Virus record (IMG/VR): IMGVR_UViG_3300047189_000056
Span: 541 to 64,540 of that record
Direction: 5' to 3' (one strand)
Length of the DNA: 64,000 bases
Origin: a virus
Lineage: Duplodnaviria; Caudoviricetes
Below the pieces are notes generated by a model, which searched no databases, was not told the DNA's origin, and saw nothing but the letters and a program-made list of their open reading frames with translations. A program made the position numbers and the translations under genes. Of the stretch, positions 1,874 to 38,295 are shown piece by piece; position 1 is the first letter of the stretch; each line of letters begins with the position of its first letter.

Positions 1874-1882
1874 GAGGGATAA

Positions 1883-2125
1883 ATGCCTGAATGGTTATGG
1901 ATGATAATTGTTGGAGGTGTGATTATGGGACTTTTGGGTTTAGTCTACAGCGGTGTTCTTACGAAAAATGAGCATGCTGATATTTGCAACAAAAAGACAG
2001 TGGTAATACAAGAAAGCATAAAGAATACAATCAAGGATGAGCTAAAAGACATAAAGGAATATTTTGACTTGAAAATCGAGAACGTAGTCTTGAAGGAGAT
2101 AAGGAAGGCAAATGGCAGACCTTGA
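1883..2125 (+). CDS. Single-TM membrane protein of the lysis region (holin/antiholin-like)
   Basis: N-terminal TM helix followed by charged coil; upstream of endolysin. Confidence 0.5.
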   Translation: MPEWLWMIIVGGVIMGLLGLVYSGVLTKNEHADICNKKTVVIQESIKNTIKDELKDIKEYFDLKIENVVLKEIRKANGRP

Positions 2126-2309
2126 GGAAAAGGAATTCCTAACGGCATCACAAGAGAAATTGTGTGATCTCTGCTTTAGAATAGCTGCCCTCTATAACCG
2201 TAGGGAGAATCTTATTAGAGAGGAAATGGCTCATCAGGGGATGAGATTGGATATTCCAATAAAGGTGCTACTTGAAGATTTGAAACAATGGATACTGAAG
2301 AATGAATAG
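2112..2309 (+). CDS. Hypothetical protein
   Basis: SD AAGGAAGG; overlaps both neighbours in coupled fashion. Confidence 0.5.
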   Translation: MADLEEKEFLTASQEKLCDLCFRIAALYNRRENLIREEMAHQGMRLDIPIKVLLEDLKQWILKNE

Positions 2310-2658
2310 ACCAGAGTTCACCCACAAAATTGCAGTGCTTCTTTGCAGGATGGTAGTTGCGGATGAAGCACCGATCGGGGATGGATGGAAGAGATCGGTT
2401 CAGGAGCAGAAACGATACTTTGATGCCGGACTTTCCCAATGTGATGGGACTATCAAAATAAGCGATCATCAGGTAGGTAAAGCATTGGATATTTTCTTTC
2501 AAGATGTTGGGGACATTGATAAGGATGGGATCACAACAGAACTCATACCGCCATTAAAAACGTGGGATTATTGGCATAATGAATGGGTGAAGATGGGGGG
2601 AAAACCATTGGTTATTTTCTCTAACGGGAATAAGGATTATCCACATTTTGCGGGATGA
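2302..2658 (+). CDS. Endolysin, M15-family Zn peptidase (L-Ala-D-Glu peptidase-like)
   Basis: RSxxEQ, SxHxxGxAxD and DxPHF motifs. Confidence 0.85.
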   Translation: MNRPEFTHKIAVLLCRMVVADEAPIGDGWKRSVQEQKRYFDAGLSQCDGTIKISDHQVGKALDIFFQDVGDIDKDGITTELIPPLKTWDYWHNEWVKMGGKPLVIFSNGNKDYPHFAG

Positions 2659-2818
2659 AAGAGAGGTAATATGATCACAGAAAAAAAAGAGTTGGATCTG
2701 TTAGGGAAGTACCGAAAGGCTGGTTATATAGTCTCATTAATTAAACTCTGTCCCCATTGTGGGAAAGAAATCTCTTTCGTAGTTGGGGGCAAGAAAAAAA
2801 AGAAAGGAGGAAAGTAAG

Positions 2819-3688: not shown

Positions 3689-4105
3689 TTATTTGGATTT
3701 TGAATCGTTTAAAATATCCCAATTATCTTTGAATTTTTTGTACTGACTTCGACGTATATTATTTGTTTCTGCATCAAAAAATCTTATGGAATATTTTCCT
3801 TCTAATTCTTTTGCTGGAACAATTAAGAAATAATCATCTTCAATGGCCCAACAAATCACAAAATCAATATCCGTTAATGGATGAGGAATATACTTATTCT
3901 CTTTTCTTCTCCAACTTTTGAAGCTAAACATATAGCTTTTATGTAATTTTGATTTATGAGATGCTTTAACTTGAATCTTAATACCCTGATTAATAATCAA
4001 ATCAATACCTCCATCGGTTGCTGGCATAAAAACATCATAACCTTTTAAAAGCAGTTCAGAAGCTACCCTAAACTCTCCAGCTTTTCCAATGGAAAGATTT
4101 TTCAC
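3689..4105 (-). CDS. PD-(D/E)XK endonuclease (homing-type)
   Basis: GxxGE...D-LI...IQVK motif; AT-rich relative to flanks. Confidence 0.8.
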   Translation of the reverse strand: MKNLSIGKAGEFRVASELLLKGYDVFMPATDGGIDLIINQGIKIQVKASHKSKLHKSYMFSFKSWRRKENKYIPHPLTDIDFVICWAIEDDYFLIVPAKELEGKYSIRFFDAETNNIRRSQYKKFKDNWDILNDSKSK

Positions 4106-4211
4106 GCAGCACCACCTCCTTTCAGCCCAAGACTACCGATGGATATAAGGCATAGGCATAAAAGGAATATAATTCCCAAATGGATCACCTTCACGATGGC
4201 ATCCCTCCTTT

Positions 4212-4463
4212 CTACTTCTTCGGCTCCTCTTTCTTTGGTGCTGGTTTAGGTTTCTCGACTACCTGACCCTTCTCAATCGTAAACCCCTTGGCATCTAACT
4301 TCTGTCCGAAGTCCTGCAATGCCCGGAATTGTGGAAGCATCTGTTGAGCCACACTAAACTCTGCCACAAGAGCTCGATACTCCCAGTTCAATTCCTCCTT
4401 CTCTCCAGCCCAGGCCACCCCTGCCATCAACACAATTGCCAATACTACAACAAACTTTTTCAT
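4212..4463 (-). CDS. Small exported protein
   Basis: MKKFVVVLAIVLMAGVAWA signal peptide; SD AAGGAGG. Confidence 0.7.
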   Translation of the reverse strand: MKKFVVVLAIVLMAGVAWAGEKEELNWEYRALVAEFSVAQQMLPQFRALQDFGQKLDAKGFTIEKGQVVEKPKPAPKKEEPKK

Positions 4464-4476
4464 TTAGACCTCCTTT

Positions 4477-4686
4477 CTATTTGACCTTTTCTATTTTGTA
4501 GTAACCTAACACTTTTCCACAATGGGGACAAAATTTGATGTCTTCTATCCCACAATGACAATCCAGTCCGAAATAAAATCCGCAATTGCCACAAGTTACT
4601 TTCCACTCAATGTCTCGATTGATCTTAATTTGACAACTTAAAACCAAAAGCATAATTATCAAAGAAAGAACAACCAATCTTTTCAT
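4477..4686 (-). CDS. Small putative lipoprotein with Cys pairs
   Basis: LVLSC lipobox-like; CxxC...CPHC. Confidence 0.55.
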   Translation of the reverse strand: MKRLVVLSLIIMLLVLSCQIKINRDIEWKVTCGNCGFYFGLDCHCGIEDIKFCPHCGKVLGYYKIEKVK

Positions 4687-4959
4687 TTATACTTCCTTGC
4701 TTGTTTGATATAATTCTTCGTCTTCCAATGGAACAACCAATAGACGAGCCCGTTTAAAATCTTCGTGTTTACCTATCGCATCGCGCAACTCCACTATTTT
4801 CATCCTTTCTTCAATCAAATCCTTAGAAAGACACTCTCTCTCTTGTTCTGTTTCTTTGAGACAGGAAAGAAGATATTTGATATGTTTTATTGCCTTAAAT
4901 GGGTTAAGATAATTTTGTGGAAGAATATCAGATTCAATCTCCCTTATCTTCTCATCCAT
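4687..4959 (-). CDS. Hypothetical coiled-coil protein (paralog of 4962-5360)
   Basis: Shared IxEI...LLS...L.eA..H...D..LY pattern. Confidence 0.6.
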   Translation of the reverse strand: MDEKIREIESDILPQNYLNPFKAIKHIKYLLSCLKETEQERECLSKDLIEERMKIVELRDAIGKHEDFKRARLLVVPLEDEELYQTSKEV

Positions 4960-12017: not shown

Positions 12018-12530
12018 TTAAGGGTTGACGATTTGGTTTTTTCTTTGAGGAGCCAATCCTTTCTTTCGCATCTTATGATGAATTAGATCATGGTAACTTT
12101 GGTTACAGATGATAAGATTGCAATTACTATTATCTTTAGGATTTCTGTTGATATGATGAACAATCTCGCCTTCTTTTAGTGGTCTTCCTAAAACGTTTGA
12201 AGCAATTAATCTATGTTCTCCTATATATCCCTCTAAACTTGCGTTTGGATGATCAGGCATTTTGATTAAAATATGTCCTCTGCCATCATAAGTATAACCA
12301 CCTTTCCAATAGCCATTTAAAGAACCTATTAATCTAATACCATACATAGGATTCCCAGAACCTTTTCTGCTTTCACTAAGTCTTTTTCTTCCTTCTTCTG
12401 ACAAAAAACTTTTACCCTTGCTATATTTATACCAACAATTTTGAGAACAAAATCTGCCCCCTCCTCTTTTAATTTCTGACATCCATGTTTGAAAAGGATT
12501 CCCACAAATTTGGCATACACATTGAACCAT
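12018..12530 (-). CDS. HNH homing endonuclease
   Basis: CxxC/FCS N-terminus, NPMYG, YIGEHRL, IVHHINRN..DN...NL. Confidence 0.85.
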   Translation of the reverse strand: MVQCVCQICGNPFQTWMSEIKRGGGRFCSQNCWYKYSKGKSFLSEEGRKRLSESRKGSGNPMYGIRLIGSLNGYWKGGYTYDGRGHILIKMPDHPNASLEGYIGEHRLIASNVLGRPLKEGEIVHHINRNPKDNSNCNLIICNQSYHDLIHHKMRKKGLAPQRKNQIVNP

Positions 12531-12806: not shown

Positions 12807-13490
12807 TCACACCTCCACCGGCTCGATAGACTTTTCCTTCAGTTTATTTCTTTCTTTCACTCTATGATATGAATCCCTTTTTACTTTCAAATACCATTCG
12901 TGGTTTAGGACCCTATAATTTTTCATCCTAATGGAAGTACAGATCGGGCAATATCGTTTTGCACTTCCATTATAAGGATAAGAAACTAATTCGTGACCAT
13001 TGTCACAATGAGTTTTTCTTGCATTTTGAGCTGGAAAACCATTCCCACGCAAAAGATTCTCTCGCATAGTTACTAATTCCATATGATCAGGATTTACACA
13101 ACGAGGATTTCTACAAAGATGATCTATTGTAAGATTGGTTGGAATTTCCCCTTTAAGATAAGCATAAGACCACCTATGAGCATTAAATGTTTGTTGTTGC
13201 CCATTTTTTTTAATTCCAAAATTACCATAGCCCCCAGGCTTAATAGATGCTATCCAGTTCCAACATCCATTAATATCAATTCTTGCTTTTCTAAAAAATC
13301 TTTCTTCGGTTGACAATCTTGGAATAGTGGCAAGTGCCTTCCGTTGAGCAACTGTTTGCTTTCTACCAATTTTGAATGTACCTGGGTTGGGGTTTAAAGA
13401 TTGGTATTTTGTATAGCAGGATTTTGAACAAAACGTTTTTCTCTTAGTACCAACATCTTGATTACATTGTTTACATGGGCGTGGATTCAT
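12807..13490 (-). CDS. HNH homing endonuclease
   Basis: GCWNW, GYG, AHRWSY, DHLCRNPRCVNPDH, KTHCDNGH. Confidence 0.9.
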   Translation of the reverse strand: MNPRPCKQCNQDVGTKRKTFCSKSCYTKYQSLNPNPGTFKIGRKQTVAQRKALATIPRLSTEERFFRKARIDINGCWNWIASIKPGGYGNFGIKKNGQQQTFNAHRWSYAYLKGEIPTNLTIDHLCRNPRCVNPDHMELVTMRENLLRGNGFPAQNARKTHCDNGHELVSYPYNGSAKRYCPICTSIRMKNYRVLNHEWYLKVKRDSYHRVKERNKLKEKSIEPVEV

Positions 13491-16792: not shown

Positions 16793-16925
16793 AGTCTACA
16801 TTATCAAACAAAGTAGACAAGAAAGTTTTTACCCACAACCTGTTGTGGTTTGAGACGAAATGATCAACTTGACCTCTCCCATACCCAGTGATACCCTCCT
16901 TCTCATTCCAATCGAGGAGGGGGAT

Positions 16926-17966
16926 ATGAAAGGAAAAGTCTATTCACATGGCAAAGGCTTTAGGGTTTACTTTAAAGGGGAATGGTTTTCTCATGACGAA
17001 TTTGGTAGGCCGCTTAAATCTAAGTTCTATGCTTATTCATTTCTCGAACATCTAAACGCTCTTTACGATCCGGATCCTGCTAAGAACCGTTATCATCCTT
17101 CAAAGTTCAAGAACAAGACGCCATATAAGCTTGATGAGGCGTTTGCTCTCTACCTTGATCGGAAGCAGACTGATTCCGGCTGGCAAAAGGCAAAGGAATG
17201 GATCTGGAAGAAATATTTCATGGTTTATTTCGCCAATCAAGACTTTCGAACAATCGATGACGTCCAACTCCAGGCCTTTGTCAAATGGCTGGAGGGCAGG
17301 GACCTTAAGGGGAAGACAATCAAGAATATCCTGATGATGTTGCATGGATTTCTAAATTACTTCAAACGTTCAATCAATATCTTTCCTCAATTCCCTTCAA
17401 TTTCTTACCAGCAACCCCGGCCAAAGAAATTTACAGACAAAGAAATTGATCAAGTCTTTGAGTTCATCCAGGAGCAAGATAGGGGTTATTTCCTTTTTAT
17501 CCGGTATTACGGAGTCCGTCCCGAGGAAGCCAGTGGGCTCCTTCGATCAGCTATTAACTGGGAAACCGGGGAGATCACCATTTCGACCGTCTTTGTCAAT
17601 GGGCGCGTAAAGCCAAAAACCAAGACCATGAAGGAAAGGGGACTCCCGATCATCCCCGAGATCGAACCCTATCTCAAATCAACCACTCTATCTACCTTCG
17701 TTTTTCAGATAGGGCGCCATCCCTACACCCGGCATGTTCGAGAGAGTCGGTGGAATAGGGCGATGAAACAGGCTGTACAAAAATACAGTGCTCGGGTAAT
17801 GACTCTGCGGGATCTCCGATCGAGTGCAACAAGCCGATGGCTAAAGAAGGGGATGCTTATCCAGGATGCAGCTCAGTTGCTCGGAAATTCCCCTGAAATA
17901 ATCAGGAAGCATTACAGCGACCAGACGGAAAATAAGGTCGTGGAAATAGTGAGAGGAAAGACTTGA
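16926..17966 (+). CDS. int: Tyrosine integrase
   Basis: YYGVRPEEA (R), LRDLRS, LLGNS, KHY (Y); SAM-like domain KTIKNIL; SD GAGGAGG before ATG 16926; adjacent attP. Confidence 0.9.
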   Translation: MKGKVYSHGKGFRVYFKGEWFSHDEFGRPLKSKFYAYSFLEHLNALYDPDPAKNRYHPSKFKNKTPYKLDEAFALYLDRKQTDSGWQKAKEWIWKKYFMVYFANQDFRTIDDVQLQAFVKWLEGRDLKGKTIKNILMMLHGFLNYFKRSINIFPQFPSISYQQPRPKKFTDKEIDQVFEFIQEQDRGYFLFIRYYGVRPEEASGLLRSAINWETGEITISTVFVNGRVKPKTKTMKERGLPIIPEIEPYLKSTTLSTFVFQIGRHPYTRHVRESRWNRAMKQAVQKYSARVMTLRDLRSSATSRWLKKGMLIQDAAQLLGNSPEIIRKHYSDQTENKVVEIVRGKT

Positions 17967-18932: not shown

Positions 18933-19358
18933 ATGGACTACTTAGAGAAGTTGAAAGATCCAAGATGGCAAAAGAAAAGGCTTGAAATTCTTCAACGGGA
19001 TCAATGGACTTGCAAATCGTGTGGCGAAAAAGAGAAAACACTTCATGTTCATCATTTATTTTATTTTAAAGACACTGATCCTTGGGATTTAAATGATGGG
19101 TATTTAATCACACTGTGCGAAAACTGCCATTCTGAAAAGAATGATGATATTTTCGGATATTTGCATGGAGATACGATTGCAGAAATTGGGAATACTCTAA
19201 ATCAAATTTGGCATTCTGGATTTGATCTTTTTGATTTGGTTTCTCTTCAAGAAATCTTTTTTTATACCAAGCGAGAACAAAAAGGACAAATAAAGTCTGG
19301 AACCTTAAAACTGAAATATTTCCACCCAAGGGGGATACTTCCAAAAAACAGAATATGA
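18933..19358 (+). CDS. HNH endonuclease
   Basis: PRWQKKRLEILQRD..TC..CG...LHVHH...LITLCENCH. Confidence 0.88.
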   Translation: MDYLEKLKDPRWQKKRLEILQRDQWTCKSCGEKEKTLHVHHLFYFKDTDPWDLNDGYLITLCENCHSEKNDDIFGYLHGDTIAEIGNTLNQIWHSGFDLFDLVSLQEIFFYTKREQKGQIKSGTLKLKYFHPRGILPKNRI

Positions 19359-20396: not shown

Positions 20397-20524
20397 TGAA
20401 TAACCGCGCTAAAGGTTTAATCTTCTGTCGCGAGGTTAAGAAGATTCTCGAAGCGATCGGTCATCAGGTCGAGGGACCCGGATATACCACGGCATTCTTT
20501 GGAGGGAAAACCAATGCGATTTAA
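20396..20524 (+). pseudogene. Truncated original 5' end of the resolvase-like gene (42 aa)
   Basis: MNNRAKGLIFCREVKKILEAIGHQVEGP... aligns with the N-terminus of 20998-21354. Confidence 0.8.
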
Positions 20525-21005
20525 AAAAGAAATATCAACAGGGAAAATTATTGATTTGTACCGATCTGGTTTGTCTTGTTCTAAAATTGGCAAATTAGTT
20601 GGAATGACCCCAGAAGGAATTAGGTACAGACTTATTGCAAATGGGAAGAAACTTAGAACAGCACGAGAGGCTACGGGCAGGGCCGACCGTGCACCCAATT
20701 GGAAGGGTGGGAAAATAAAAATGGCCCAAGGATACACGGGTCTCTATTTCCCTCATCATTATCGAGCAAATCAAAATGGTTATGTATTAGAGCATATTGT
20801 TGTTTGGGAAAACTATCATAATAAAAAACTTCCTAAAGGTTGGATAATTCATCATTTAAATGGAGTTAGAACAGATAATAGAATTAATAATTTGGCTGCT
20901 ATGCCAGTCAACAAACATGATCGATTGGTTAATCCCTATATTAAAAGAATCAATCAACTTGAAAAAGAAGTAACTCAGTTAAGACAGGGAAAATTATTTG
21001 GATAA
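20514..21005 (+). CDS. HNH homing endonuclease with N-terminal HTH
   Basis: NWKGG, GYVLEH, IIHHLNG.RTDNR..NL; SD GGAGG then ATG 20514. Confidence 0.88.
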   Translation: MRFKKEISTGKIIDLYRSGLSCSKIGKLVGMTPEGIRYRLIANGKKLRTAREATGRADRAPNWKGGKIKMAQGYTGLYFPHHYRANQNGYVLEHIVVWENYHNKKLPKGWIIHHLNGVRTDNRINNLAAMPVNKHDRLVNPYIKRINQLEKEVTQLRQGKLFG

Positions 21006-25192: not shown

Positions 25193-26851
25193 ATCGAACC
25201 TCAAGTAGTCGTCAATAGCACCTATCTTGACCAGCGCGCCCACGAAGAACTCTACCGGGACGACCTCGCTTTCTTCTCTCTCAATGCCGGCATTATGCTT
25301 GATGGCCAGCCTTTTTCGTTCAAGTACCATGAATATTTGATTGAGCCCTACGAGCAGATTCGGAAGCATCAGGAGGTGATCTTTGAGAAGGCGGCCCAGA
25401 TGGGGTTGTCAACCCTAGAACTTCTCGATACTTACCACGGTGCGAGGTACGGGACCTATCCTCATGGCGTACTCTATCTACTTCCTTCGAAGACGGATGT
25501 TACGGAGTTCTCAAAGTCCAAGGCACAGAGCCTCATTGATGAGAACCCTATCATCGGTTCATGGATCAAGGATACGGACACCGCGAACGTCAAGAAGGTC
25601 GGTAATGCATGGTTGTTCTTTAGAGGGATGCAGTCGAGGATAGGCCTCAAGACCATCACGGTTGATAAGATGGTCTTTGATGAGATTGAAGAAATTGAGG
25701 ATTGGTCACTGGTGGCATTGGCTGAGGAGCGGATGAGTCACATTGAGGAAGAGAAGAAGTTCACTCACCGGCTCTCGGTCCCATCCATCCCCGCTTATGG
25801 AATAGATGCTTATTTTGCTGGTTCTCCGGATGCCGGTATCAGGCCTTCCGATCAGCGGTTCCTTCATTTCCAATGCCTTCACTGTAACGAATGGACGTGC
25901 TTTGAGGATGAGTTCCCGGACTGCATTGTCGAGGTGGATGCAAAGAGGGAGAAAGCAATTAGGATATGTAAGAAATGTAAGCGTGAGCTCCCTTTGTCCT
26001 CTAAAATAGAATGGGTGCCTCGAGACCTTGACTCCAACATCCTTGGTTACCACTTCTCCCAACTCTTCTCTCGTTATGTTAATCCCTGGAAGATCCTTGA
26101 TCAGTTCCGTAAGAAGCGCGAGCTCACCACCCTTTTCAACGATAAACTCGGCATTCCCTATGTTGACGCTGAAGCCCGACTTGAAATCCGTGACATCCTT
26201 GCCCTCTGTACCAGCAATCTTCAGCTCAGTGCTTTTGCGGGTCCTGCGGCTATGGGGGTCGATCAGCCCAAGGAAGAAGGGGGAAAGTTTCATGTCACGA
26301 TCGGATACCGCCAAGAGGGTAAACCCTGTAACATCGTTAGGGTCTGTATTCGAGAGAAATGGGCGGAGATTGGTGAGCTGATGGATCAGTTTAATATCGC
26401 CCGTTGTGTGGTTGATGGACTCCCCGATCAGGCCAAGGCCAGGAGTTTTGCTAAAGAGTTTAATGGGAAGGTTTTCCTCTGCTACTATTCCGATAAACAG
26501 AAGGGCGCAGCCAAGTGGAATGAGAATGATTGGATGGTAAGTGTTGATCGGACTGAATCCCTCAACTCATCTACCCGAGCTATTCATGAACAGAAGATTT
26601 CTATCCCTCGGTCGGACGATACGGATGTTAAACTCTTCGCCCGCCATGCCCATAATATTGCCCGCAAGAAAGAAGAGGATAAGGATACCGGCTCGGTCAG
26701 GCAATGCTGGGTTAAAACTGGAAGCGATCACTATCGACATGCATATAATTATTTATGGTTAGCTTTACCAGAGATCGGTGAGTACATTCCTCCAAAACCA
26801 AACGATTGGATGGGGAACCTGCCGAAGAAAAGGAATTGGAAAACAATATGA
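25193..26851 (+). CDS. terL: Terminase large subunit, GpA-like; probable ATC start
   Basis: KAAQMGLS, FDEIE Walker B, CxxC/CxxC, GVD and DH nuclease motifs; frame open from TAAGGAGG-agac-ATC. Confidence 0.88.
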   Translation: MEPQVVVNSTYLDQRAHEELYRDDLAFFSLNAGIMLDGQPFSFKYHEYLIEPYEQIRKHQEVIFEKAAQMGLSTLELLDTYHGARYGTYPHGVLYLLPSKTDVTEFSKSKAQSLIDENPIIGSWIKDTDTANVKKVGNAWLFFRGMQSRIGLKTITVDKMVFDEIEEIEDWSLVALAEERMSHIEEEKKFTHRLSVPSIPAYGIDAYFAGSPDAGIRPSDQRFLHFQCLHCNEWTCFEDEFPDCIVEVDAKREKAIRICKKCKRELPLSSKIEWVPRDLDSNILGYHFSQLFSRYVNPWKILDQFRKKRELTTLFNDKLGIPYVDAEARLEIRDILALCTSNLQLSAFAGPAAMGVDQPKEEGGKFHVTIGYRQEGKPCNIVRVCIREKWAEIGELMDQFNIARCVVDGLPDQAKARSFAKEFNGKVFLCYYSDKQKGAAKWNENDWMVSVDRTESLNSSTRAIHEQKISIPRSDDTDVKLFARHAHNIARKKEEDKDTGSVRQCWVKTGSDHYRHAYNYLWLALPEIGEYIPPKPNDWMGNLPKKRNWKTI

Positions 26852-27798: not shown

Positions 27799-29754
27799 AT
27801 GGCGCAAGAAGATTTACTACCTGCCGTTGAGCAGGTTGCAGGAAATAATCCTACGGTTTCCGGTATAACCTCTGAATACGTCACTCCCACAAAGGTCTGG
27901 GGATGGTATAGAGAGGGAAGAGAAGCTTCTTCTAATTTCCGAATACAGGCAAATACTGATTGCAATTATTACGACAACGAGCAATGGACGGAAGAAGAGA
28001 AGCAGGAACTCGATAATCGTGGTCAGCCCGCCATTGTCATCAACCGCATCAAACCCACGATTGATCTTGTTACTGGCACTGAGACTAAGATTAGAGTTGA
28101 CTTCAAGGCCGCTCCCCGGAAGAGCAACGGTACCCTTGATGCTGGCATCGCTACCGAATGCATTAAGTACGTTATGGATGCCAATCAGGGGGAGTATATT
28201 ATCTCCGACATCTTCGAAGGCCAGATCAAAGCCGGATGGGATTTTGTTGAACTTTCCAAGAATGATGATCCATTTAAAGAATTGATCCAGCTCGCAAAGG
28301 TTCCCCGTAATGATCTCATTTGGGATCCCTATGCCAAGGAATATGATCTCAGTGACGGCAAATATTTTATCCGTCCGAAATGGATGGAACTTGAGGATGC
28401 CGAAGCTAAATTTCCTAAATTCAAATCTCTTCTTGAGATGGTTGTCTCTGATGATGAGGTTGAATCCTTTCGCGAATCTCCGCATCATGGCACTGAAGAT
28501 CAACCCGATAGACCTGGCGTTCGTCTCTGGGATAAGAACATTTCCTCTACCGAATGGGTGGATAAGTCCCGGAAGAGAGTAAAACCCATCGAATGCTGGT
28601 ATAAGGTCCCTATTGAAACCCATTTAGTTGATAACTACCTCACTGGTGAAGTCGAGGAACTTAATCCTGCAAAGATTCAAGAAGTCCTTTCTACTCCCGG
28701 AGCCACAATTACTAAAGTGTTTATCAAAAAAGTCCGGCTCTGTATCATTGCAGGTCCTTACCTTCTCGCTGATAACTGGTCACCTTATCGTCACAATGAG
28801 TACCCCTTTATCCCATGGTGGTGCTTCCTGAAAGACAAAGACCGCTCTCCCTATGGACTGATCCGGCAAATGCGGGATCCGCAAGATGAGATTAATAAGC
28901 GCCGGTCTAAGGCCATGCATCTTCTTAACTCTACCCAGATTATTGCCACCTCAGATGCTATTGATAAAAAAGAGAACGATTGGAAAAAGGTGGCTGATCA
29001 GATAGGAGATCCACAGGGGATTATTCTTCTTAATGCCACTGCCGGGGCAAACTCTAAGTTTGAAATCCGAAATCCTATGGCCATTGTAGAACAACAATAT
29101 AAATTCGAAGAGGAAGCCAAGGGTGAAATTGAGGAAGCTGGGGTCAACCGCGAACTTAAGGGTATGGAAACTAATGCTTCCTCTGGTCGTGCGATCATTG
29201 CCCGCCAAGTCCAAGGCAATACCATGTTGGGTAAGCCCTTTCAGAACTATCGGCGCTCCCGTCAACTTCTCGGCCAGCGCATATGGTCAATGATTCAACA
29301 ATTTTGGACACGGCCAAAAGTTCTTAGAATTACTAACAAGACAGGTGAACACGATTTTATTGAACTCAATATGCCGGTAAATCTCAACGGTAAAGTTTAC
29401 ATTAAGAATGATATCACTCAGGCTAAGGTTGATATCGTTATTGACGAGCAGGCCTTTAATGCCACGGTTCGCCAAACCCTGGCCGATGAGATGTTCCTCC
29501 TTATCTCCAAACTTCCTCCTGAAATTGGCATTCTTATGCTCGATGATGTCATTGATTTTCTTGATCTTCCTAATAAGGACAAACTCATGCAGAAGATCCA
29601 GATGGTTCAGGGAGTTATGCAGCAGCAAATGGGAACGAAGCAGGAGAATGAGAGAATGGTGGCAGAAGCGACAAAGGCTAAATCTGAAACTAATACAGTC
29701 AACCGTTCCTCCGAAGAATCGGCTATGCGGGGAGGACTCCCCGGGAGTGCTTAA
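27799..29754 (+). CDS. Portal protein (P22-like)
   Basis: YYD..QWT...RGQP...NRIKP, YGL.R...DPQ.E.NKRRSK, SGRAI.ARQ.QG. Confidence 0.92.
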   Translation: MAQEDLLPAVEQVAGNNPTVSGITSEYVTPTKVWGWYREGREASSNFRIQANTDCNYYDNEQWTEEEKQELDNRGQPAIVINRIKPTIDLVTGTETKIRVDFKAAPRKSNGTLDAGIATECIKYVMDANQGEYIISDIFEGQIKAGWDFVELSKNDDPFKELIQLAKVPRNDLIWDPYAKEYDLSDGKYFIRPKWMELEDAEAKFPKFKSLLEMVVSDDEVESFRESPHHGTEDQPDRPGVRLWDKNISSTEWVDKSRKRVKPIECWYKVPIETHLVDNYLTGEVEELNPAKIQEVLSTPGATITKVFIKKVRLCIIAGPYLLADNWSPYRHNEYPFIPWWCFLKDKDRSPYGLIRQMRDPQDEINKRRSKAMHLLNSTQIIATSDAIDKKENDWKKVADQIGDPQGIILLNATAGANSKFEIRNPMAIVEQQYKFEEEAKGEIEEAGVNRELKGMETNASSGRAIIARQVQGNTMLGKPFQNYRRSRQLLGQRIWSMIQQFWTRPKVLRITNKTGEHDFIELNMPVNLNGKVYIKNDITQAKVDIVIDEQAFNATVRQTLADEMFLLISKLPPEIGILMLDDVIDFLDLPNKDKLMQKIQMVQGVMQQQMGTKQENERMVAEATKAKSETNTVNRSSEESAMRGGLPGSA

Positions 29755-29879
29755 TGGCAAGAACTGTAGTCTCTACAGATAATCCAATAACGGTTAAGCA
29801 TCAATCTACTGGAGTAAAGAAGAGGAAAATTAGGTCGTTCTCTAACTTTAGGAAAGCAAGGAGAAAACGGTATGGCTAA
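29754..29879 (+). CDS. 41-aa basic peptide whose N-half resembles the capsid protein N-terminus
   Basis: TAATG coupling to portal, SD GGGAG; MARTVVSTDNPITVKHQSTGVKKRKIRSFSNFRKARRKRYG. Confidence 0.7.
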   Translation: MARTVVSTDNPITVKHQSTGVKKRKIRSFSNFRKARRKRYG

Positions 29880-30051
29880 AAAATGGATCCAAGCGGCCAC
29901 GGCAAAGATGAAAGCTAAAGGGACATTGGGATCATTTGGTAAAGCGACAACTTCGAAGATTTCTGCTGGTAAGAAAGCCGGTGGAGTGGAAGCCAAGAAA
30001 GCTCAGTTTGCTGCCAATATGAAGAAGATTGCTCAAAGAAAGAAAGGATGA
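29872..30051 (+). CDS. 59-aa basic protein (AKKWIQ-type small phage protein)
   Basis: SD AAGGAG; MAKKWIQAATAKMK...KKAQFAANMKKIAQRKKG. Confidence 0.75.
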   Translation: MAKKWIQAATAKMKAKGTLGSFGKATTSKISAGKKAGGVEAKKAQFAANMKKIAQRKKG

Positions 30052-30120
30052 TCCTAAACCTCTCGGGAAAGTAGAGGTAGGAAATAAACGCCACCCCTGG
30101 CGATAGAAGGGAGAAACAGC

Positions 30121-31134
30121 ATGGAAGAACATCAGTTGGATTTGGATTTATTGTCAGAAGAAGAGGCAAGCGCCCTAAAACAAATTCCTCCAATCGGTGA
30201 CGAACCGGAGACGACACCCGATGAAGAAAAGGTCGAAATTGTGGAGCCGTCACCTCCCGAAAAGAAGATTGAGGAACTTCCGAAAGAGCCACCTCTTGTA
30301 AAGGTAGAAGAACCCCCACCAGTCGTAAAGGAAGAGAAGCCGCCCACGATCGACGGCATTATCGCCAAAGACGGCAAGAACTTCATCCCTTTCTCTGTCT
30401 TGGAAGAGGAGAGGACGAAACGGCAAGATGCCGAAACGAGAAGGCAGCAACTCGAAGTTGAGGTTGCTGAATTGAAGAAACCTAAACCTGCTGAACCCGT
30501 AAGGGAACCCGAGAAGAAAGTTGAAGTCCCTCCGCCTCCACCGATCGACTTCAAGGCCATGGGGAAGAAACTCTATGAGTCTGAAGATGGTGCGGCTGAG
30601 GTTCTACAACAGATGTTTCAGGCTGGAGTAACGGCCGGTAAAGAATCTGGGGCTACGGCAGCGAAGAGTACCAGTATGGAGTTGGATTTCAAAAAGGAAG
30701 TCGAAAGGATCAAGGGCGCCAACCCCTGGATTGCTGGAGATCCTATTGTGGAGGGAGTGTTATTTAACAGGGCCCTTCAGATTATGGATGAACGCAAGAT
30801 TCCTCAGGATGATCTTGGTGGGATGGTAAAGGCTGCCGAGGATGCGGTTGCTGAGGGAAGGAAGAAATTTAGGGTTGATGACCCCAAGATCGATCTGCAG
30901 GTTGAAATCGATAAGGCAGTCAAGGCGGCAGTAGAAAAGAACACCAAAGAGGTCTTGGCCAAATTCAATATCAAGGAGCCAGACGCTGTAACTCTGGCTA
31001 ATGTTAGAAATCTTAACCCAGAAATTACCTCTAAGTTCGATGAAATCGACACAAAGGTCGGCATCGATTTTGAGGAAGCTTATGGACTACTCACGCCAGA
31101 GGAAAGGGATGCGTATCTTAGACGTACTGCTTAA
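30121..31134 (+). CDS. Capsid scaffolding protein
   Basis: Acidic Pro/Glu-rich, IP..VL.EER.KRQ motif, directly before MCP. Confidence 0.8.
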   Translation: MEEHQLDLDLLSEEEASALKQIPPIGDEPETTPDEEKVEIVEPSPPEKKIEELPKEPPLVKVEEPPPVVKEEKPPTIDGIIAKDGKNFIPFSVLEEERTKRQDAETRRQQLEVEVAELKKPKPAEPVREPEKKVEVPPPPPIDFKAMGKKLYESEDGAAEVLQQMFQAGVTAGKESGATAAKSTSMELDFKKEVERIKGANPWIAGDPIVEGVLFNRALQIMDERKIPQDDLGGMVKAAEDAVAEGRKKFRVDDPKIDLQVEIDKAVKAAVEKNTKEVLAKFNIKEPDAVTLANVRNLNPEITSKFDEIDTKVGIDFEEAYGLLTPEERDAYLRRTA

Positions 31135-31169: not shown

Positions 31170-32294
31170 ATGCCTAGAACAATTATTGCAACCGGTGACG
31201 GCATTACCGTAAAACATTACAGTGCCGCCATGTTCATGGAATGTATCCCTCAGAGCTTTTTCCTCTCCAAGTTTTTAGGGAAAGCCAAGAGGGTTGATAA
31301 ACAAAGAACCCAGACAGACCCCGACTATCCTATCCAGATCATCACAGATTTGGAGAACGATTCTGGGGACGGAATTTCTTATGACCTCTTCACTCGCGCC
31401 AAAGGGCAGGGCATTGAAGGCGACAATGTTCTGAGGGGGAATGAAGAGAAACTGGTCTGGTATACGGATACCGTTTTGATCGACCAACTCCGTCATGGGA
31501 TGGACTGTGGTGGAAAGATGACCCGCAAGCGGACCCGTCATAACCTCCGGGATGTTGCCAAAAGCAATCTCTCCGGATGGTGGGCGGAGCGGTTCGACGA
31601 ACTCTTTTTCATGTATCTGACCGGAGAGAGGGGGGATGATACGAGTATTTGGGTGCTCCCAGATACCTACGCTTCATTCGCAGGAAATACGCTTACCGCC
31701 CCTGATGCCACAAAGGACATCTATGCAGGAGATGCAACCACGACCGCAGATCTGGATGCAGCCGATACCTTCACCCTTGATCTGATCGACGATGCCGTGG
31801 CCATGGCTGACCTCAGTACTCCTCTTATGAGGAGATGCAAGGTCGGAGGTCAGACCTTCCGGGCCGTCCTGGTTCTTCATCCCTACTGTGTCCGAGATCT
31901 TCGAACGAATACGGCAACAGGACAGTGGTTGGATATTCAGAAAGCAGCGGGGATTAGAGGTCCCCAGAACCCGATTTTCTCTGGTGATGATTTTATCGGT
32001 GTCTACAATGGTGTGGCGATCTTTAAGCACCCGAAGGTTGTCCTGCATGATGACTGGGGTGGTGCTGCGGTGGCCGGTGCAAGGAACATCATGCTCTTTG
32101 CCCAGGCCGGAGTTTTGGCATTCGGTTCTCCCGGTAACGGACTCCGCTTCACATGGCATGAGGAAATGGAAGACCGGGACAATGTGCAGGTGATCGATAC
32201 CGGGTCAATGTTCGGAGTGAAGGCGGCAATCTTCAGCTCGAAGTTTTTTGGTGTGATCACGATTGCAGCCGGGGCTTCTTCGAGCAGATCGTAA
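31170..32294 (+). CDS. Major capsid protein (N4-gp56/DUF4043-like)
   Basis: DLE...GD.I..DL, G..GD..L.G.EE.L, IDQLRH, R.RT.H.LR, W.D.QK.A, NPIF.G. Confidence 0.9.
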   Translation: MPRTIIATGDGITVKHYSAAMFMECIPQSFFLSKFLGKAKRVDKQRTQTDPDYPIQIITDLENDSGDGISYDLFTRAKGQGIEGDNVLRGNEEKLVWYTDTVLIDQLRHGMDCGGKMTRKRTRHNLRDVAKSNLSGWWAERFDELFFMYLTGERGDDTSIWVLPDTYASFAGNTLTAPDATKDIYAGDATTTADLDAADTFTLDLIDDAVAMADLSTPLMRRCKVGGQTFRAVLVLHPYCVRDLRTNTATGQWLDIQKAAGIRGPQNPIFSGDDFIGVYNGVAIFKHPKVVLHDDWGGAAVAGARNIMLFAQAGVLAFGSPGNGLRFTWHEEMEDRDNVQVIDTGSMFGVKAAIFSSKFFGVITIAAGASSSRS

Positions 32295-32338: not shown

Positions 32339-32764
32339 ATGACTCTTTATTCCAAACAAGCTAAAAGTTGGTCTCCCGTCAGGGAGTCCGATGCAGGAAA
32401 TCTTCAGTGTGTCATTGGATATGTGGCCGCTGCAGATGTAATGAATATTGTCCAGAACGACGTCTGCGAGATGGTGAAGGTTCCAGTCGGGGCAGTCATT
32501 GTTGATTGCTTGTTAGATATCCCTAATGTGGGAGCCAATGTCAATGTGTCGGTTGGTGATAGTGATGGCGTAGCCTATCTCATCGCCGTACAAGCTGGTT
32601 CTACGGCTGCATTGGTGAGAAGGAACGTTACGGGTTCAGGAGTCCCTAAGCAGTATGCCATAGAGGACACGGTTGACGTTAAGTTTACTAACGCCGACCC
32701 AACCAACAACGTTGCGTTCAGTCTCTATGTGATGTATGTCTGTGGAATTGATTTGACTCCATAA
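32339..32764 (+). CDS. Capsid cement/decoration protein
   Basis: Follows MCP; D...M.KVP.GA.I.D, VGD jelly-roll pattern. Confidence 0.7.
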   Translation: MTLYSKQAKSWSPVRESDAGNLQCVIGYVAAADVMNIVQNDVCEMVKVPVGAVIVDCLLDIPNVGANVNVSVGDSDGVAYLIAVQAGSTAALVRRNVTGSGVPKQYAIEDTVDVKFTNADPTNNVAFSLYVMYVCGIDLTP

Positions 32765-33805: not shown

Positions 33806-34168
33806 ATGGCAGTAACTCTAATTAAGAAGACTACGGAGAGGCCTCTATGCATCCATAGTGACGGAACTTCTTGCTATGTAGGAACCAACAGGGGAAGGAT
33901 TTTGAAGACAACAATCTCTGATGGTACTACGGTCGTATATGCGAGGCTTGCCAATACAAAGGTCACGGCCCTTACCTCGGACGACAGTTATCTCTATGTT
34001 GGAGACAACAAGGGAAGGATTACTCGGATTACGATCAATGCGACTTACTCTCTGAGAGTGAAGTCCGTCCTTGAGGTGAACTTGCATTCCCCTGTTGTTG
34101 GTATCCATCACAACACAGCGACCCGGTATCTTGTGTTGGCAAACGGAAAGGTTGAGAGCCGAGCATAG
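33806..34168 (+). CDS. Short beta-propeller-blade protein
   Basis: Repeated YVGT/D..GRI blades; SD AAGGAG. Confidence 0.6.
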   Translation: MAVTLIKKTTERPLCIHSDGTSCYVGTNRGRILKTTISDGTTVVYARLANTKVTALTSDDSYLYVGDNKGRITRITINATYSLRVKSVLEVNLHSPVVGIHHNTATRYLVLANGKVESRA

Positions 34169-34181
34169 GAAAGGGATTTAT

Positions 34182-34673
34182 TTGGATGTAGAAAAACGTA
34201 GAGAGCGTGAGCGAAAGTACCGTTCTGTTCATAGAAAAGAGATTAACGAAAGAAGACGTAGGCAATATGCTAGGGATCGAGAGCGGATAGCCGAGCATGT
34301 TCGTCAATATCATCTCTCACATCCAGAAAAGAGACCAGCAGCATGGAGTAGATATAAAAATAAAAATGTTGAGAGACTTAGGGATCATTGGTTCAAAAAA
34401 TATAGGGAGAATCCTAATAAATTCCGAGAGAAAGAATTTAAAAGAAAATATAACCTTACGCTTGAAGATATTGATGAAAGGTTAATAAGACAAAATCATC
34501 AATGCCTTCTTTGCGGAAAATCTTTAGTTGAAACAAAAAGATGTATTGACCATAACCACGAAACCGGTAAGGTAAGAGGAATTTTATGTACTCGGTGTAA
34601 TACCGGATTGGGATATTTTAGGGATGATCCAGTATTTCTTAGTCAAGCAATTGCTTATCTTAGTCGGGAGTAA
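34182..34673 (+). CDS. Endonuclease VII-like homing endonuclease
   Basis: Q...C.LC...IDHNHETGKVRGILC..CN.GLG.F.D. Confidence 0.9.
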   Translation: MDVEKRRERERKYRSVHRKEINERRRRQYARDRERIAEHVRQYHLSHPEKRPAAWSRYKNKNVERLRDHWFKKYRENPNKFREKEFKRKYNLTLEDIDERLIRQNHQCLLCGKSLVETKRCIDHNHETGKVRGILCTRCNTGLGYFRDDPVFLSQAIAYLSRE

Positions 34674-37547: not shown

Positions 37548-37795
37548 AAAGAGTAAAGCCGTATCCAGGTCATAAGGTTGCTACAAGTGATGATCCCCTC
37601 GACCAGTATGGGATTTCTGACATTGATACGTCTGGAACAACGGAATATTACGGATACTTAGATAAGGACGGGAATTGGTGCATCATCCAGGTGACAGCGA
37701 CTACAGTGAGGTATAAGGTTGGAACCTCAAACTACACAACTAACTGGACTGGACGTGCGGATCTTGTCTATGGCTATTTTAATGCGGTGTTTTGA
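37544..37795 (+). CDS. Small putative virion protein (paralog of 38999-39241)
   Basis: Y.G..D..GNWCI..VT...GT.NY..N shared. Confidence 0.65.
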   Translation: MKRVKPYPGHKVATSDDPLDQYGISDIDTSGTTEYYGYLDKDGNWCIIQVTATTVRYKVGTSNYTTNWTGRADLVYGYFNAVF

Positions 37796-38295
37796 TGGAC
37801 GACTGTAAATGGATTTGCCCAATTTGCAAGAAAGAAAGAAAAATTACTTATCAACAGTTTTGGAATATAAAAACCAAAAGAAATTCTGGAAATTGTTATA
37901 GTTGTGCGGAAAAGTTGAAAAACCATGACCATTTAAGGCTAACAAGGCCGTGGAATAAAGGATTAAAAGGTTATCGTAAAGGACACCCACCTTCTTTTAT
38001 GGCATACGGGAAGGATAATCCGGCTTGGAAGGGAGGTATAACGCCAATAAATTTAAAAATAAGAAACTCAGAAGAGTATAGGGAGTGGAGAAAAACAATT
38101 TTTGAAAGAGATAATTATACCTGCCAAGAATGTGGGGAAAGGGGTGTAAAGCTACACGTTGATCATATTAAACCATTTTCTTTATTTCCAGATTTAAGAT
38201 TCGAAATTTCTAATGGTAGAACGTTGTGTTTAGGTTGTCATAAAAACACCAATACCTATTTAAGTAGAGTATATAATTATGGCCTACAAATTTAA
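37795..38295 (+). CDS. HNH homing endonuclease
   Basis: PWNKG, NPAWKGG, WR..IFERD.YTC..CG, HVDHIKP, NGRTLC..CH. Confidence 0.9.
   Translation: MDDCKWICPICKKERKITYQQFWNIKTKRNSGNCYSCAEKLKNHDHLRLTRPWNKGLKGYRKGHPPSFMAYGKDNPAWKGGITPINLKIRNSEEYREWRKTIFERDNYTCQECGERGVKLHVDHIKPFSLFPDLRFEISNGRTLCLGCHKNTNTYLSRVYNYGLQI

Follow-up and report, generated by a model that had tools for sequence, protein, structure and literature searches.

A small open reading frame (ORF) located directly behind the portal gene of an uncultured sediment phage, and referred to here as the mini-ORF, is very probably a real gene that is held under purifying selection and was derived once from the N-terminal arm of the major capsid protein (MCP). 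The stretch of DNA that was analyzed (the window, 64,000 nucleotides) corresponds to bases 541-64540 of the 64,540-base IMG/VR phage record IMGVR_UViG_3300047189_000056, which carries direct terminal repeats at its ends. The mini-ORF encodes a peptide of 41 amino acids (aa) that begins with a copy of the tip of the MCP arm and continues into a polybasic segment. We tentatively propose that this peptide is an accessory head protein of low copy number, which would dock on the capsid lattice by means of its arm tip and bind DNA or an acidic partner by means of its basic helix.

Homology to the capsid arm and conservation of the mini-ORF

The portal-coupled ORF and its Arg/Lys tail had been pointed out in a preliminary description of this DNA, and both are present: the start codon shares one base with the portal stop codon (TAATG), and the peptide contains 13 Lys and Arg residues (K:R ratio of 6:7), with a net charge of +12 and an isoelectric point of 12.0. 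The same description regarded the ORF as hidden and unannotated, which does not hold, since the same 41-aa protein was already present in the protein collection on four contigs, and gene callers thus do detect it. Contigs from four DNA runs were compared over positions 29300-30600, and the pieces spanning the mini-ORF were identical to the window, with zero polymorphism. No match to the mini-ORF was found in Pfam, the PHROG scan returned 0 families, and the look-alikes of the peptide in the ESM Atlas all scored below 0.9 and offered no lead.

When the peptide was compared with the phage's own MCP by BLASTP, its residues 1-21 aligned with residues 1-21 of the MCP (10/21 identical, 15/21 positives, E 3e-5). 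Because the E value of such a single comparison ignores multiple testing, two profile searches were made. The first profile was built from the first 55 residues of 86 of the 120 listed MCP homologues, namely those longer than 300 aa that contain the motif [VIL]K[KHRQ].S within the first 25 residues, and was compared with all 2,979 stop-to-stop ORFs of at least 20 aa from all six frames of the window and eight close relatives (Joint Genome Institute (JGI) metagenome contigs, designated here, like the other loci, by L numbers). The mini-ORF of the window was recovered with an E value of 1.9e-5, ranked after nine MCPs, and a second mini-ORF was recovered in L089 (E 5.8e-3), with the best match that was neither an MCP nor a mini-ORF at E 0.02. 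In the reverse search, a profile of five mini-peptides was applied to the window plus 104 loci (26,405 ORFs), and it retrieved the two mini-ORFs (4.8e-22 and 2.2e-16), all other matches being N-termini of MCPs (6.9e-7 to about 1). A weak match to the helix part (positions 17-46) of the MCP-arm profile, located upstream of the portal gene in L083 (E 0.02; 0.16 in a larger search), is probably due to chance.

The similarity to the MCP start that had been noticed at the outset proved significant in both searches, and its ten identities stand at an aligned length of 21 residues. As judged from the alignments, which span positions 1-19 or 1-21 of the mini-peptide profile (E 2.7e-4 on the phage's own MCP), this similarity is real and statistically supported up to residue 19-21 only. 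The early remark that the DNA of the two segments has diverged was likewise borne out, the proportion of differing silent sites (pS) over codons 2-18 being 0.95, that is, full divergence, and that of amino acid-changing sites (pN) 0.31. A MAFFT alignment extends the similarity to the MCP 'SFF...K' segment, whereas the HMMER alignments do not, and homology past residue 21 up to that segment is only suggestive. In the alignment, the hydrophobic start of the MCP helix (residues 19-27) is replaced by a run of Lys and Arg in the peptide. The peptide is closer to the consensus arm of the family than to the arm of its own MCP, with E values of 6.9e-7 to 5.4e-5 for other MCPs and 2.7e-4 for its own. 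The E-loop, P-domain and A-domain are all absent, and in place of an HK97-type body of about 370 aa the ORF ends after 41 codons; by these sequence features, the product is a paralogue of one MCP segment and not an MCP.

Predicted structures, of modest confidence for both, follow the same plan in the two proteins. In the AlphaFold2 model of the peptide, residues 1-17 have no secondary structure and residues 18-40 form a helix (mean predicted local distance difference test score of 65.5, and 68-80 in the polybasic part), and in that of the MCP, residues 1-17 are unstructured and helices occupy residues 19-28 and 30-35. From residue 1 onward, the MCP profile matches PDB 8h89 (E 3.1e-100), the solved MCP gp2 of Ralstonia phage GP4, which has a T=9 capsid. 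According to the accessible part of the report on the GP4 capsid (PMC9698820), the N-arm of that protein comprises residues 2-47 and is uncleaved; its residues 14-19 reach the neighboring subunit of the same capsomer, where a strand is added to the E-loop and a three-stranded sheet results, and its residues 2-15 together with the E-loops of other capsomers build the middle layer, or pedestal, at the quasi-threefold axes below the cement trimers. The arm tip (residues 2-19) is placed by the same part of that report in the middle layer beneath the cement protein and not in an inner groove (PMC9698820), and the available portion of a phi24B preprint describes the arm of this capsid type as uncleaved and ordered from residue 2. 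Against this background, the peptide looks like a whole N-arm set free, in which the start of the helix has changed from hydrophobic to Lys/Arg.

The gene recurs outside the window. In L089, a mini-ORF of 36 codons occupies the same place, starting with a GTG that overlaps the portal stop codon (TAGTG) and preceded by GGGGAGGG at a spacing similar to that of GGGAG in the window. Its product is 50% identical to the window peptide over 38 residues (tblastn E 8.4e-6). The two phages are well diverged, with identities of 87% for the MCP (over 249 residues), 66% for the C-terminal part of the portal and 51% for the scaffold. A word-based search with the window peptide alone returned only the peptide itself; a word-index search with both peptides uncovered a third member, P0122, listed by JGI as 'hypothetical protein', and an exhaustive HMMER search of 1.84 billion representatives at E<=0.001 returned four proteins, which include the window's own (P0121) and the further members P0122 (36 aa, E 4.6e-11), P0123 (48 aa, E 9.6e-6) and P0124 (43 aa, E 5.2e-5). 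Against PHROG, P0123 matched 0 families and P0124 gave one unrelated weak match (E 0.01). All five members begin at residue 1 with MA[RQ]TV[VI][ST]T, share V14, K15 and a KK[RK]K cluster around residues 21-26, and have Ser or Thr at position 7, where close MCPs have Ala. Their net charge ranges from +9 to +12 at identities of 45-58%, and K:R ratios of 10:3, 9:4, 11:2 and 9:3 in the four members other than the window peptide make 4/5 of the family Lys-rich.

Comparison of the window and L089 mini-ORFs indicates purifying selection. Over codons 2-18, pS is 0.76 (saturated) and pN 0.16 (pN/pS 0.21), and in the tail the values are 0.87 and 0.36 (pN/pS ~0.4). The 16 differences within codons 2-18 are split 7/0/9 over codon positions 1/2/3 (Fisher p 1.2e-4), and four of the five alternative frames of the mini-ORF are interrupted by stops.

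Proposed role of the peptide and alternative explanations

Given that the mini-ORF is read with the portal gene via the stop-start overlap, along with which it would be translated, the peptide would be made late and probably in few copies; the portal is a 12-copy protein, and coupling to it fits a low copy number. The tip of the peptide may dock on the lattice in the manner of the MCP arm tip, either as a strand on the E-loop of a neighbor or at the quasi-threefold pedestal, in places where an MCP arm is missing, and the portal vertex would be an obvious site for this, as it has lost its penton. This tip is the best-kept part of the peptide, and its known partners in GP4 are the MCP E-loops and the cement pedestal. 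The +12 helix, in turn, would bind DNA or an acidic protein, for instance that of the portal or the scaffold; charge and helix are preserved in the tail while its sequence is not, which suggests that it attaches unspecifically to DNA or an acidic surface. A prediction of the complex of MCP and peptide, made without controls, scored 0.00 and speaks neither for nor against docking. If the peptide fills the arm sites emptied by the portal, part of the 5-fold/12-fold mismatch would find a simple solution, and a structural protein would have spawned its own 'spare part'.

Several observations weigh against this proposal. The whole gap between the portal and scaffold genes is visible in six close relatives, and the mini-ORF is present in one of them (L089) and missing from L082, L083, L084, L085 and L087, as it is from all 98 further loci examined. 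The slot between the two genes looks like a moron or accessory site and not like that of a core head gene. Genomic context, moreover, covers two of the five family members, those of the window and L089. With respect to the peptide itself, the mini family relaxes positions that are near-invariant in MCP arms (D10, T13, Y17, S18 and A19), which could weaken native-like docking. Finally, the antisense frame of the mini-ORF is open in both phages and likewise has pN below pS (pN/pS 0.40 compared with 0.21 in the sense frame), and the assignment of the strand is consequently based on protein homology and not on the selection statistics alone.

Two more relatives, L086 and L103, are cut off upstream, and their visible part does not contain the mini-ORF. 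MCP relatives in IMG/VR are distant (<=49% identity), and none of their 80 loci has a second arm-like ORF; the portal protein and the mini-peptide alignment each had no match in that database. Among GTDB genomes, two distant MCP loci were found, both without the mini-ORF, and the single match of the peptide among cultured phages (tblastn, E 4) is not significant. Since relatives that are equally close do without the mini-ORF (in L082 the portal stop abuts the leader of the scaffold gene), it is accessory and dispensable for this capsid type, and its product is not an essential nucleator. The preliminary interpretation as a capsid-arm mimic therefore survives in that the mini-ORF is a real, conserved and stop-start-coupled small gene with an MCP-arm-homologous head, but not in the role of an essential nucleator of this capsid type.

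The stretch from the portal stop to the leader is hypervariable. It is empty in L082 and contains a terminator-like hairpin alone in L083 and in the near-identical L084 and L085; in L087 it harbors a gene for a 305-aa DHH phosphoesterase (phrog_4771, E 2.6e-51), of which a cut copy is found in L086. The slot of L089 holds the mini-ORF together with a strong terminator (-37 kcal/mol, z -7.3), and that of the window holds the mini-ORF and a second small ORF (ORF59). An intrinsic terminator is located at the 3' end of the slot in most relatives, and none is found there in the window and in L082. The slot thus behaves as an accessory-gene hot spot.

Three other assignments were considered and rejected. 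The antisense ORF at 29751-29996, taken as the true gene, is hydrophobic and Cys-rich, has no homologue and shows the higher pN/pS. For a frameshift fusion of portal and peptide, the mini-ORF frame extends upstream without a stop for just 20 codons in the window and 11 in L089, and no X XXY YYZ slippery site was seen. Derivation of the basic tail from an MCP 5' end by frameshift conflicts with the other frames of the MCP start, which give no basic tail, and with the single intact copy of the MCP gene in the phage record.

Of the alternative functions, one directed at the scaffold is unlikely, albeit the best placed of them. The peptide would bind the acidic scaffold at the site of the MCP arm, enter the procapsid in the manner of proteins that bear a capsid-targeting tag, and stay with the DNA, or it would tune the engagement of scaffold and MCP near the portal. 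The opposite charges of the scaffold (-24) and the peptide (+12) agree with such an interaction, as does P22-type assembly, in which the scaffold binds the coat N-arm, and T4 has a small head-core gene, gene 67, at this very place, likewise coupled to the portal gene by an overlap of start and stop. The few copies suggested by the portal coupling would be poorly suited to neutralizing the charge of DNA, however, and the best-kept part of the peptide is the tip (residues 1-19), whose counterpart in GP4 contacts the MCP and the cement protein and not the interior, as far as the accessible part of the GP4 report goes (PMC9698820).

Somewhat less likely still is a decoy, which would imitate the exposed MCP N-terminus either, as anti-defense, toward a host immune sensor of capsid protein or, as interference, toward the assembling capsomers of a related phage in the same cell. 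Sensors that recognize major capsid proteins do occur in bacteria, and the patchy distribution of the mini-ORF, the hypervariable slot with its DHH phosphoesterase in L087 and an arm copy that resembles the family consensus more than the arm of the phage's own MCP would all suit a function of this kind. To our knowledge, no sensor is known for this capsid family, and a literature search by terms found no capsid-arm decoy. A decoy would also have to out-compete a very abundant MCP from late and apparently low expression within the portal unit, and it would leave the conserved polybasic helix without a role.

We give the same low probability to the view that the mini-ORF is a functionless relic, left by partial duplication or recombination of the MCP 5' end and open only through the run-through of portal ribosomes. 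Its shortness, its absence from most relatives, the recombination-prone slot and the lack of a family annotation are what such a relic would look like, but the frame has remained open in two phages despite saturated silent sites, with pN/pS of 0.21 in the head and ~0.4 in the tail, and the start overlap has been kept, as have charge and helix in five members at 45-58% identity, which is unlike neutral sequence. Very improbable, lastly, is an RNA-binding regulator whose basic helix would act on the leader hairpins or the downstream terminator and whose arm copy would sense free MCP: the covarying two-hairpin leader does lie 170-200 nt downstream, and a strong terminator separates it from the mini-ORF in L089, but this reading is disfavored because the leader is equally conserved in relatives without the mini-ORF and four of the five peptides are Lys-rich and not Arg-rich, their poorly conserved tails pointing to unspecific electrostatics.

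The head module and other genes of the phage

The coordinates of the mini-ORF, of its neighbors and of the related features in other loci are listed in Table 1.

Table 1. Features of the window and of related loci (positions of loci are given after the locus name)
Feature	Position	Strand	Remarks
Large terminase	25295-26851		Pfam GpA_ATPase
Portal, 651 aa	27799..29754	+	Pfam P22_portal, E 1.6e-134
Shine-Dalgarno-like GGGAG	29743..29747	+	6 nt 5' of mini-ORF ATG, within final portal codons
Mini-ORF, 41 aa + stop	29754..29879	+	Free-standing MCP N-arm paralogue; from sequence, ORF list and homology searches
N-arm-tip copy, codons 1-21	29754..29816	+	Profile alignments cover positions 1-19/21; extended in model
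Polybasic part, codons 22-41	29817..29876	+	Inside predicted helix 18-40
ORF59, 59 aa, Lys-rich, net +15	29872..30051	+	AAGGAG ribosome-binding site 8 nt upstream
Structured leader of scaffold-MCP genes	30050..30120	+	Marks 3' border of variable slot
Scaffold-like acidic protein, 337 aa, net -24	30121..31134	+	Named from position alone
MCP, 374 aa	31170..32294	+	Pfam Phage_capsid_3, E 9.4e-51; GP4/N4-gp56 type
MCP residues 1-21 (copied segment)	31170-31232	+
141-aa protein, candidate cement/decoration	32339-32764		Adjoins MCP gene on 3' side; conserved in relatives
HNH endonuclease, endonuclease VII and tyrosine integrase genes (joint list)	12018-12530, 12807-13490, 18933-19358, 20499-21005, 37792-38295, 34095-34673, 16860-17966
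Mini-ORF of L089, 36 codons	L089:777-887
DHH phosphoesterase slot	L087:507-1424
Leader copies	L082:4858-4934, L083:3757-3832, L084:553-632, L086:104-187, L089:981-1061, L103:160-240
Weak MCP-arm profile match	L083:2-250	+	Upstream of portal
Tandem pairs of the 141-aa gene	L083:6044-6890, L100:279-1138
Split MCP genes	L035:173 and 1376-2248; L055:3045 and 4100-4945; L058 (=L093):908 and 1876-2754		N-terminal piece and remainder

The mini-ORF stop codon overlaps the ATG of ORF59, which has neither a Pfam nor a PHROG family and no counterpart in L089; ORF59 resembles clusters of small viral proteins in the ESM Atlas (scores 0.92-0.96), which are taken as leads only. At the other border of the slot, the leader of the scaffold and MCP genes (~70 nt) is found in all relatives and consists, in order, of GATCCTAA, hairpin 1, AGGAAATA, hairpin 2, GAAGGGAG and the scaffold ATG. 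Compensatory changes support nine of its 15 predicted pairs among seven sequences, and it is ~94% identical between the window and L089 although adjacent silent sites are saturated. It has no match in Rfam and probably serves the scaffold-MCP operon in regulation or processing.

No Pfam family was found for the scaffold-like protein, and its PHROG matches are families of unknown function; it is kept among relatives at 40-62% identity, and its net charge of -24 as a whole comprises -16 in residues 1-120 and -4 in the conserved last 60 residues. None of the 35 window ORFs that were scanned belongs to a prohead protease family, and the head module gave no blastn match against cultured phages. With GP4 as the parallel, the 141-aa protein encoded behind the MCP gene is a candidate cement or decoration protein. 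It shows weak matches to the virion structural family phrog_486 (E 0.0014) and to the cement protein chain 7dou_4 (E 0.76), and its gene is present as a tandem pair in L083 and L100.

Genes for HNH endonucleases (five) and for endonuclease VII (one) are dispersed over the genome, some of them within the structural module beside methyltransferase and radical-SAM genes. The window also contains a tyrosine integrase gene (E 5.6e-9), and the phage may therefore be temperate. Three distant relatives have a split MCP gene: its N-terminal piece occupies a 99-115-codon open frame, and the remainder, matching from MCP residue 82-94 onward, follows ~0.9-1.2 kb downstream, which suggests that the capsid gene has been interrupted by an intron or by insertion of a homing endonuclease.

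Comparison with known systems

The closest parallel in design is gp61.1 of phage T4 (54 aa), an uncharacterized protein annotated as hypothetical, whose residues 2-38 match residues 57-93 of the T4 MCP gp23 with 17/37 identities (E 6e-9). Like the mini-ORF product, it is a small stand-alone copy of an N-terminal segment of the phage's own MCP that is followed by a Lys-rich charged tail, here containing KKKK. The two sequences are nevertheless unrelated, and the mini-ORF, P0123 and P0124 match no relevant PHROG family. The source of the T4 copy, gp23, is cleaved and belongs to another MCP family, and the copy presumably spans the gp23 cleavage site; its gene lies beside the primase gene and not behind the portal gene, and its net charge is -1 compared with +12. 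By these comparisons, gp61.1 is an analogue in design and not a relative, and copies of this kind appear to have evolved on more than one occasion.

It is possible, though doubtful, that arm copies joined to a charged helix form a recurrent, independently evolved class of head factors that donate an arm strand at symmetry-breaking sites, the portal vertex among them, or mimic the arm toward scaffold or host sensors. If this were true, such copies would have a general part in capsid assembly, or in immunity directed at capsids, that has so far been overlooked. Given that T4 has a gene that follows this design without being related, the idea can be tested in a model phage even though the phage studied here is uncultured. 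A search of the literature by terms found no description of a stand-alone copy of an MCP arm.

With the MCP arm of the GP4/N4-gp56 type (PF13252, PDB 8h89), the peptide shares the homologous residues 1-19/21 and the succession of an extended tip and a helix from residue 18-19. A precedent for the role proposed at the portal vertex is provided by the portal vertex protein (PVP) gp34 of Thermus phage P74-26, together with the N-arm of the P74-26 Dec protein. In the available part of the P74-26 study, PVP is lineage-specific, occurs at the portal vertex only, stabilizes this vertex and adds N-arm strands to the MCP sheets around the portal aperture, with its Lys2 placed in a groove of the DNA (PMC12407722). 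It differs from the peptide in having a globular domain (T7 gp2-like) and in not being a copy of an MCP arm, the peptide being modeled as coil and one helix; the location of PVP, furthermore, was seen by cryo-EM, whereas the mini-ORF peptide is known from its sequence alone.

The coupled position behind the portal gene is shared with T4 gene 67 (80 aa; L107 AF158101 6782-7024), whose start codon begins on the final base of the portal gene 20 (record position 102781); its annotation is that of a prohead core protein from which internal peptides are derived. In contrast to the mini-ORF product, gp67 is very acidic and contains no MCP copy, and it undergoes processing by the prohead protease. The internal proteins of T4 have an N-terminal targeting leader that is removed by such a protease; a family of this kind was not found among the 35 scanned ORFs of the window, and MCP arms of this capsid type remain uncleaved in GP4 and phi24B. 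Decoration or cement proteins such as lambda gpD are described, in the accessible part of the GP4 report, as adding an N-terminal strand to the E-loop sheet of the MCP, beside the MCP N-arm (PMC9698820). They are folded trimers that cover the entire shell, whereas the mini-ORF encodes a 41-aa peptide and the candidate cement gene of this phage is a separate one. Arginine-rich-motif peptides of the lambda N type are defined by an Arg-dominated motif, which the mini-ORF family lacks. Since a defining feature of each group was looked for and not found, the product is not assigned to the MCPs, the PVPs, the T4 internal proteins or the arginine-rich-motif peptides.

Small accessory head proteins are usually found only through unexplained density in cryo-EM maps, and this one was predicted from letters alone; because the peptide copies a segment whose contacts are known in a solved homologue, its binding target is predictable as well. 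On present comparison, the mini-ORF looks like an accessory head gene of an unstudied kind, with a putative place among the small accessory capsid proteins.

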